DNA of 64,000 nt from NCBI RefSeq assembly GCF_041886205.1, contig NZ_CP169029.1; one strand, given 5' to 3'. The position numbers and the translations under genes are program-made. Below, piece after piece: positions 45,931-46,718 of the stretch (position 1 is the stretch's first letter; every line of letters starts with the position of its first letter). The notes under the pieces are model-generated. The model did not search any database. It was given only the letters and a program-made list of their open reading frames with translations, and was not told where the DNA came from. Source of the stretch: Escherichia coli (lineage in GTDB: Bacteria; Pseudomonadota; Gammaproteobacteria; Enterobacterales; Enterobacteriaceae).

Positions 45931-46452
45931 TTATTTCACAAATGTCCGCTTAACGCGCTCAGATACAATGAAATAGGGGATCCAAATACAGGCACTAAAC
46001 ACGTTACGTACCAATGGTTTTACCGTATCAAAAACATAAGGCACGTCTAAATAGATGTGGCCCAGCAGTAAATCGACAGCAACAAATATCGTTCCTATCC
46101 CAATAAGTGCAATATAGTGATGCGGCAATTGACGCTTTTTACGAAAAAACAAGCTACTAACGAAAATTCCATAAGAAAACATACCAATGAAAGCAAAGAG
46201 TTCAAAAAAGAGGATCCCTTTTTGTGCGTGACCGATCTGCGCAATATTTTCCATTAAGAATCGTATAGTGAAATTAATAGAGATCATATTGGCGAGAATT
46301 GTTAAAACCAGTCCTATTGCTGGCAAGTATAGCCAACCACGAATTTTTTTAAATTCGCGTTCTTCACAAACAGCGCAAAAGTCACTGTCCTTCAGTGCTT
46401 CATTCTCACATTGAATACAAAGTCTTATTTTCTTCTCTGCATCATGGCTCAT
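45931..46452 (-). CDS. Membrane protein with N-terminal Cys4 zinc-ribbon and 4 predicted TM helices (immunity-like?)
   Basis: CIQCENE...CAVCEE motif followed by four hydrophobic helices; ATG with SD AGGTGA. Confidence 0.5.
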   Translation of the reverse strand: MSHDAEKKIRLCIQCENEALKDSDFCAVCEEREFKKIRGWLYLPAIGLVLTILANMISINFTIRFLMENIAQIGHAQKGILFFELFAFIGMFSYGIFVSSLFFRKKRQLPHHYIALIGIGTIFVAVDLLLGHIYLDVPYVFDTVKPLVRNVFSACIWIPYFIVSERVKRTFVK

Positions 46453-46466
46453 CTGATAATCACCTA

Positions 46467-46718
46467 TTATTTATACGGGAAAAGTTGAAGATCATGCTGT
46501 TTATTTTCGTCTGTATTGTCACCATTCAGCATATGACCCGGTCCCCGGGTACCATCGCGACTCGGATCACGTACAGCACACTGTTCCCGTGAACCTTCAC
46601 AACCACCACCGGTATCCAAGCTATTATCATTCCCGGTATCCTTACTGGCATTACCTGTAGCACCGGCTATTGCTGCTGCCGTATTAGCTGCTGTTTCAGT
46701 GGCTATCATATTCAGCAT
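46467..46718 (-). CDS. Small Gly/Ala-rich protein (83 aa), possible toxin remnant or peptide toxin
   Basis: MLNMIATETAANTAAAIAGATGNASKDTGNDNSLDTGGGCEG...; frame opens right after the upstream immunity gene stop. Confidence 0.3.
   Translation of the reverse strand: MLNMIATETAANTAAAIAGATGNASKDTGNDNSLDTGGGCEGSREQCAVRDPSRDGTRGPGHMLNGDNTDENKQHDLQLFPYK

Follow-up and report, generated by a model that had tools for sequence, protein, structure and literature searches.

A CdiA toxin remnant followed by an intact DUF2569 gene in the orphan array of an Escherichia coli CDI locus

Genes of the orphan array

The two ORFs considered here belong to an E. coli-type cdiBAI locus with an orphan array, all the ORFs of which are found, according to the ORF list, on the minus strand of the window, by which we mean the whole stretch of 64,000 nucleotides of Escherichia coli contig NZ_CP169029.1 (assembly GCF_041886205.1) that was analysed. 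The locus is defined by a full-length cdiA gene, the counterpart of which in the near-identical locus of strain STEC434 carries the RefSeq annotation 'contact-dependent inhibition effector tRNA nuclease'. The array comprises the following genes (ORF list unless stated otherwise):

48361..58140, minus strand: cdiA, full-length, 3259 aa
47879..48364, minus strand: cdiI, 161 aa, partner of the full-length cdiA
46982..47650, minus strand: upstream orphan CdiA-CT, Gly/Trp-rich, opening at VVVENN (extended translation)
46753..46995, minus strand: 80-aa membrane ORF, presumed CdiI of the upstream orphan module
46467..46748, minus strand: small ORF; the TTG start gives 93 aa, the ATG start at 46718 gives 83 aa (sequence)
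45931..46452, minus strand: DUF2569 gene, intact, 173 aa, predicted inner-membrane protein (sequence, Pfam)
44973..45896, minus strand: next orphan CdiA-CT, a 307-aa ORF with pre-toxin segment, VENN and toxin
44590..44976, minus strand: 128-aa ORF that overlaps the end of this orphan, presumed immunity gene

The sequence and the ORF list bear out the initial annotation in that both the small ORF and the 173-aa ORF are present on the minus strand and lie between two recognisable orphan modules (46982..47650 and 44973..45896), downstream of cdiA and cdiI; 35 nt separate the stop codon of the DUF2569 gene from the start of the next orphan CdiA-CT. A near-identical layout occurs in only four complete E. 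coli genomes, e.g. STEC434 and VG35A2. The orphan that follows the DUF2569 gene is annotated in STEC434 as two short hypothetical proteins (positions 6908-7964 of that locus), as opposed to the single 307-aa ORF in the corresponding region of the window (compared over 44590..45896), a difference that reflects either a frameshift between the two strains or a gene split by annotation. The distal edge of the array is marked by transposase gene fragments of the IS66 and IS110 families (43556..44559), which lie just past the last orphan module. An Rfam search of 44000..48500 yielded nothing, and comparison with NCBIfam and PADLOC gave no match above noise for the small ORF, the 173-aa ORF or the neighbouring orphan ORFs.

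Origin of the small ORF

The small ORF had been described as Gly/Ala-rich and devoid of a VENN motif, and both descriptions hold in part. With 11 glycines and 10 alanines (25%), the protein is moderately enriched in these residues, but threonine, asparagine and aspartate are enriched as well (eight each), and the sequence as a whole is of low complexity. A literal VENN is indeed absent, but the four codons just before the ATG encode AGNN, a degenerate form of this boundary: at the same site, the full-length cdiA of E. coli M3 has GCT GAA AAC AAT (AENN), one base away from the window. Upstream of the xENN codons, the sequences of the window and the M3 cdiA are unrelated; the homology to the window begins at these codons in the cdiA genes of M3, A19 and FEX669, and the blastn match to cdiA genes accordingly starts at position 30-31 of the query (46548-46760, minus strand). 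The left boundary of the small ORF at VENN codons conforms to the module rule described for orphan arrays (PMC3150448). The ORF can be divided into three parts:

46719..46730, minus strand: degenerate VENN-type boundary, GCT GGA AAC AAT = AGNN (DNA comparison with M3 cdiA)
46497..46718, minus strand: 74 codons homologous to the N-terminal post-VENN segment of M3/A2/88-3493-type CdiA-CT, including the CEGSREQC loop (blastn, protein alignments)
46467..46496, minus strand: nine unrelated codons, HDLQLFPYK, and a TAA stop, past the 3' breakpoint (divergence from M3 cdiA)

Across about 150 E. coli genomes, cdiA genes and orphans match the 74-codon segment at 92-96% nucleotide identity. The M3 CdiA consists, around and after the boundary, of ...GRNSAENN, then MLNVIATETAAN...NTDENKQ, then PNLGKDV...AELGGAGAGTPGG... 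and a toxin of about 150 aa, and the gene behind this cdiA encodes a DUF596 protein; the segment that comes after AENN opens with MLNVIATE. The homology between the window and M3 covers 74 codons and ends right after ...GAAAATAAACAG. Because the homology stops at this point and only the nine unrelated codons follow, the small ORF contains no toxin domain; about 170 residues of the M3 linker and toxin are missing. Furthermore, the same 74-residue segment is joined in strain 88-3493 to a different toxin, annotated as DUF4258, and so the segment has to be regarded as a shared N-terminal portion of the CT rather than as a toxin. A match of the 83-aa sequence to a CdiA C-terminus, envisaged in the initial annotation, therefore does exist but involves the N-terminal post-VENN segment, not the toxin domain. 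CdiA-CTs have been described as combining an N-terminal entry domain with a C-terminal toxin (PMC7858069); the 74-aa segment resembles entry domains in being common to CTs with different C-terminal toxins, and the window differs from this architecture in that the N-terminal segment alone survives. CTs with this N-terminal segment are followed by a DUF596 gene in M3 and A2 and by an 87-aa ORF in 88-3493. Judging from these sequences, DUF2569 is probably not the cognate immunity of the M3-type CT, the partners of which are other proteins.

Together with the spacer that harbours the Shine-Dalgarno sequence, HDLQLFPYK forms the fixed upstream edge of a DUF2569 cassette, and the same tail is found ahead of DUF2569 in the O157:H7, M3 and VG35A2 junction types. 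The part of the segment that is retained varies: in other genomes, only the last 25 codons or so, or fewer, remain before the same downstream gene, the cut points differ between genomes, and the complete version is missing in 50 of the 54 genomes that carry DUF2569. A protein search with the small ORF retrieved only short E. coli fragments, several of them with '...KNAAENN' directly before 'MLNVIATE...'; all homologues are CdiA-CT segments or fusions, with no free-standing protein family among them. A Pfam search with the small ORF returned nothing even at E<=10, and a PDB sequence search with the M3 CdiA-CT gave nothing significant. The remnant differs from the M3 cdiA by five synonymous and four non-synonymous substitutions, too few for dN/dS to be read.

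Two further observations concern the same segment elsewhere. In five E. coli proteins, its reading frame continues after ...GGGCE into a Cys-rich sequence, VCRVCGAEQPEAPWGDDGETPTYDICNCCGVEFGYED...; these fusions mark a further recombination junction, found in other arrays, and one of the products occurs on 103 contigs. In VG35A2, the small ORF (positions 6083-6349 of that locus) contains a 15-bp tandem duplication, with ANTAA repeated, that extends it to 88 aa, and bears the RefSeq name 'hemolysin domain protein'.

Taken together, these comparisons make it very probable that the small ORF is a non-functional recombination scar that consists of a mutated VENN-type boundary and a 74-residue CT stub. 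The module has lost its toxin domain and linker as well as the cognate immunity gene. The initial annotation, which considered an orphan deprived of its pretoxin region, was right about the degradation but wrong about the lost part: what survives is the boundary at VENN together with the 74 residues that follow it. A peptide toxin of the class II microcin type was also considered for the small ORF and was rejected, given the lack of a leader, the varied truncations and the nature of the homologues, all of which are CdiA-CT segments or fusions.

The DUF2569 protein and its relatives

The features of the 173-aa protein largely agree with its initial description as a membrane protein with good translation signals, a Cys4 motif and four helices. 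The relevant elements are:

46453..46466, minus strand: 14-nt spacer with the Shine-Dalgarno sequence AGGTGA of the DUF2569 gene (sequence)
46366..46419, minus strand: CxxC-x10-CxxC knuckle, residues 12-29 of the DUF2569 protein (alignment)

The gene starts with an ATG, and AGGTGA lies seven bases upstream. Of the two ORFs, only this one is recognised by Pfam: it is a full-length match to PF10754 (DUF2569; i-Evalue 1.4e-28), with residues 35-172 aligned to positions 2-143 of the 143 in the model. With the members of PF10754 the protein shares the same full-length domain, the four helices and the C-terminal IWIPYF..S.RVK.TF; the subfamily found in the window differs by an additional N-terminal Cys4 knuckle and, in the case of the window copy, by its location inside a toxin array. 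The four cysteines (C12, C15, C26, C29) are invariant in 15 enterobacterial homologues; the zinc-ribbon profiles of Pfam match the protein only at E of about 0.2, and distant DUF2569 members lack the Cys4 motif. Other conserved motifs are FFRKKRQLP and IWIPYFxVSxRVKRTFV. The AlphaFold2 model (mean pLDDT 92.3) contains a membrane bundle of four long helices (39-69, 75-104, 109-135 and 141-163), three of which are strongly hydrophobic in a Kyte-Doolittle scan, the fourth more weakly so, and is best interpreted as an N-in/C-in protein with four inner-membrane helices and a cytoplasmic Cys4 knuckle. A PDB sequence search with the DUF2569 profile detected nothing significant, Foldseek comparison of the model with the PDB returned generic helical bundles only (best E 1.3), and no link of sequence or fold to known immunity families was found in NCBIfam, PADLOC, PDB sequences or PDB folds. 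The literature on DUF2569 and ydgK amounts to passing mentions, among which no published function for the family was found.

Scanning for promoters and terminators produced results at the level of chance (11 sites against 8.9 ± 3.1 expected) and no minus-strand terminator. Only about 60 nt upstream of the DUF2569 ATG are common to all junction types, and since these contain no promoter of its own, the gene is probably transcribed by read-through along the array, by analogy with orphan cdiI genes; transcription of orphans in CDI arrays has been reported (PMC3150448).

Of 5426 complete E. coli genomes, 54 carry a full-length DUF2569 gene that matches the window copy at >=95% identity. The 167 genomes that are matched by the DNA of the pair mostly contain the small-ORF segment or flanking pre-toxin DNA, not DUF2569. 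At least five different upstream junctions are seen: the gene follows the AGNN remnant in four genomes, the immunity gene of EC869 orphan 10 in 35 and a pre-toxin fragment, as in M3, in 11, in addition to two further types. In 30 sampled records, it is annotated as a protein except for the frameshifted copy of EC93. In the arrays of E. coli, it is located at or near the distal end. A tblastn search against plasmids retrieved only divergent DUF2569 genes and the EC93 copy on pCP127. In this prototype CDI strain, the gene (positions 7001-7503 of the plasmid locus compared) is a frameshifted pseudogene that forms the last element of a plasmid-borne orphan array and is followed by Tn3 and IS remnants. 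The DUF2569 genes of the window and M3 differ by 13 synonymous and four non-synonymous substitutions (dS 0.127, dN/dS 0.08), those of the window and O157 by nine synonymous versus one non-synonymous, and dN/dS among the array copies ranges from 0.03 to 0.20. To judge from these substitution patterns, DUF2569 is held intact under purifying selection within E. coli arrays.

Outside the arrays, DUF2569 has a different setting. The closest relative of the window copy (80% amino acid and 72.6% nucleotide identity) is chromosomal and has no toxin neighbours. It shares with about 20 further Enterobacteriaceae species a syntenic position between yjfF (often with a chemoreceptor gene) and fbp-mpl; the hosts include Kosakonia, Yokenella, Phytobacter, Cedecea, Siccibacter, Klebsiella, Citrobacter, E. 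albertii and E. whittamii. In Serratia, DUF2569 lies between udg and an HPP gene. No toxin genes accompany the yjfF–fbp or Serratia copies at the loci examined. In a search for traces of recent capture, no flank homology was found between the E. coli copy and the Kosakonia and Yokenella loci, the match covering no more than the coding region, from about codon 11 on. The content of the yjfF-fbp locus is variable in the set compared, with extra ORFs in Kosakonia BYX6 and Enterobacter Bisph1, and one contig carries tandem DUF2569 genes. The syntenic copies have a median amino acid identity of 47%, compared with 95% for the adjacent FBPase. Within Kosakonia, the identity is 48-95% for DUF2569 versus 96-99% for FBPase. 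Such divergence is atypical for a housekeeping membrane protein, and the fast evolution of the chromosomal gene fits, without proving, a role in conflict. As to the membership of a housekeeping family, which was raised initially as an argument against an immunity function, the evidence is divided: the nearest relatives are syntenic chromosomal genes without toxins, yet DUF2569 occurs repeatedly, and under selection, in CDI arrays.

A distinct clade of DUF2569 is found in Photorhabdus, where the gene stands last in the CDI orphan arrays of at least eight species; by their downstream flank, at least three distinct groups of arrays can be told apart (the loci compared are L008-L011, L034-L039, L043, L059, L066 and L067). 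Three loci that end in DUF2569 are present in P. akhurstii. About nine of the 13 Photorhabdus copies are intact and about four are truncated or frameshifted. The neighbor-joining tree, which is without support values, places the array copies of E. coli within the chromosomal clade of Kosakonia and separates them from the Photorhabdus clade; this topology suggests that DUF2569 was recruited separately into the arrays of E. coli and Photorhabdus.

The immunity slot next to membrane-depolarising toxins

So which toxins accompany DUF2569 in the arrays? The orphan CT upstream of the pair in the window (46982..47650) is similar to EC869 CdiA-CTo10 (28% identity over 215 aa, E 2e-13), and the 80-aa ORF that follows it (46753..46995) is weakly similar to a 79-aa ORF of Photorhabdus and to the small membrane ORF after EC869 o9. 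The Photorhabdus loci contain, just upstream of DUF2569, o9-like CTs with approximately 60-73% identity to EC869 o9, and P. tasmaniensis has decayed pieces of a VG35A2-like CT at this position. Directly upstream of DUF2569 in Photorhabdus there is a decayed small membrane ORF, preceded by o9/o10-like toxin remnants, and this toxin and small membrane ORF are usually full of stops. The module beside DUF2569 thus belongs to one toxin superfamily (o9/o10) both in the E. coli window and in Photorhabdus. Among the loci examined, no intact toxin gene is directly paired with DUF2569. In a metagenome-assembled genome of Variovorax sp. (positions 2697-6411 of the locus), an 85-aa membrane ORF with two helices lies between a cdiA-like gene, the product of which is hydrophobic in its C-terminal region, and a downstream DUF2569 gene without the Cys4 motif. 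Since the relatives of this DUF2569 gene occur in unrelated genomic contexts and do not repeat the arrangement, this case has to be considered anecdotal.

Experiments have shown that EC869 CdiA-CTo10 depolarises membranes and depends on SecY, and that its CdiI, a protein with two membrane helices, protects against it on its own (PMC7858069), so that a second protective factor is not needed. Like this CdiI-o10 and like the immunity proteins of pore-forming colicins, DUF2569 is a small, predicted polytopic inner-membrane protein encoded just downstream of genes for depolarising toxins; unlike them, it has a Zn-ribbon-like motif, cytoplasmic in the model, and no similarity of sequence or fold to them was detected. 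The immunity proteins of pore-forming colicins are integral-membrane proteins that provide immunity to pore-forming toxins.

The region also invites comparison with the orphan cdiA-CT/cdiI modules (Poole et al. 2011, PMC3150448; EC869 o1-o11). It has the same downstream position and orientation, spans the same interval from the VENN-coding sequence to the VENN of the next orphan, and displays the same pattern of signals, with good translation signals for the second gene and poor ones for the first, which in the small ORF amounts to a weak Shine-Dalgarno sequence. It differs in its CT fragment, which lacks a toxin domain, and in the occupant of the immunity slot, which bears no relation to the immunity genes usual for this CT type. 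The same DUF2569 cassette is located between o10 and o11 in EC869-like O157:H7 genomes. In the literature consulted, the DUF2569 gene is not among the numbered orphans, and CdiI-o10 is the two-helix protein encoded upstream (PMC7858069), which points to the DUF2569 gene between these two orphans never having been counted as one.

The reading that we put first, tentatively, is that the region represents one decayed orphan module in which a dead CT stub is followed by an intact DUF2569 gene that occupies the immunity slot, is probably transcribed with the array and is most likely protective. Under this scenario, recombination would have left behind the AGNN boundary and the 74-residue stub, with the linker, the toxin and the cognate immunity gene gone; the DUF2569 gene in the immunity slot would be transcribed by read-through along the array and would be kept as a stand-alone immunity-like factor against the membrane-targeting CDI toxins of the o9/o10 superfamily, its neighbours in both E. 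coli and Photorhabdus. A decayed module is preferred over a new toxin/immunity pair because the small ORF has no killing domain and DUF2569 merely occupies the slot. Taken separately, the proposal that DUF2569 protects cells as a stand-alone immunity-like factor against membrane-acting CDI toxins is rather doubtful. Counting against it are the lack of a directly paired intact toxin at the loci examined, the sufficiency of CdiI-o10 for protection, the M3-type arrays with their tRNase/DUF596 neighbour, the toxin-free chromosomal relatives, the truncated or frameshifted copies in Photorhabdus and EC93, the unrepeated Variovorax arrangement and the missing link to known immunity families. It is equally conceivable that DUF2569 is the immunity gene left over from a deleted toxin. 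A more far-reaching version, which strikes us as unlikely, holds that the Zn-ribbon/DUF2569 proteins comprise an unrecognised stand-alone family of inner-membrane immunity or resistance proteins directed against the SecY-dependent, depolarising o9/o10 CDI toxins, recruited repeatedly from a fast-evolving chromosomal gene and kept distally after the decay of the adjacent toxin and immunity genes.

Could DUF2569 be simply a passenger? It might be an ordinary membrane protein that was captured by illegitimate recombination and has been kept for its own physiology, or as a downstream homology arm for module exchange, without any part in immunity. We regard this as a serious possibility, nearly as likely as the protective reading. 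It would readily explain the syntenic chromosomal genes of some 20 Enterobacteriaceae species with no toxin genes near them, the confinement to the coding region of the homology to chromosomal copies, the failure to find a cognate toxin, and the position at or near the distal end of the arrays in both E. coli and Photorhabdus, where an anchor would be expected. A mere passenger is harder to reconcile with the purifying selection in the arrays, which acts on the protein sequence and not on the DNA alone, with the apparently separate recruitments in the two genera, with the occurrence of the gene at several different Photorhabdus loci, with the presence of the same toxin superfamily next to it in both genera, and with the unusually fast evolution of the chromosomal copies in comparison with FBPase.

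A third, improbable reading is that DUF2569 is an accessory factor of the ionophore-type modules rather than an immunity protein, one that, for example, modulates membrane insertion, aids the two-helix CdiI or alters the SecY/PpiD/YfgM route of the o10-type toxins. The dependence of o10 on SecY (PMC7858069) is in line with such a role, as is the location of DUF2569 directly after the small membrane ORF of an ionophore module in P. tasmaniensis, in the window, in EC869-like genomes and in the one Variovorax genome. The adjacent small immunity gene, however, is often decayed while DUF2569 is intact, so an obligate partnership between the two does not appear to exist, and the M3-type arrays of E. 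coli, in which the module beside DUF2569 is a tRNase/DUF596 pair, contain no ionophore module.

Finally, the initial annotation considered a separate peptide-toxin/immunity pair. In this reading, the Gly/Ala-rich product of the small ORF would act as a secreted or membrane-active peptide toxin and the membrane protein would confer immunity to it. The idea draws on the tight spacing and common orientation of the genes and on the listing of the 83-aa ORF as a protein in RefSeq, but is extremely improbable for an ORF that is the N-terminal segment of larger CdiA-CTs, has no free-standing family, possesses neither a double-glycine leader nor a signal peptide and has poor initiation signals, is cut variably and only rarely found complete ahead of DUF2569, and is fused elsewhere to unrelated sequences and, in other strains, to at least two different toxin domains.

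With the reading of a decayed module that retains a DUF2569 gene in its immunity slot, the finding as first stated becomes largely ordinary, orphan arrays being known to be full of recombination scars. DUF2569 is a candidate new family of the immunity slot in a well-known kind of locus, and the novelty is limited to that extent. What appears worth keeping is the conservation of DUF2569 in the CDI immunity slot in two genera, next to membrane-depolarising toxins, along with the contrast between purifying selection on the gene in the arrays and the very fast divergence of its chromosomal relatives. Should DUF2569 turn out not to be protective, it would still be a useful marker of the distal array boundary. 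If, conversely, it protects against ionophore toxins, this would be the first function for the family, and CDI arrays could then be seen to hold generic as well as toxin-specific immunity genes.
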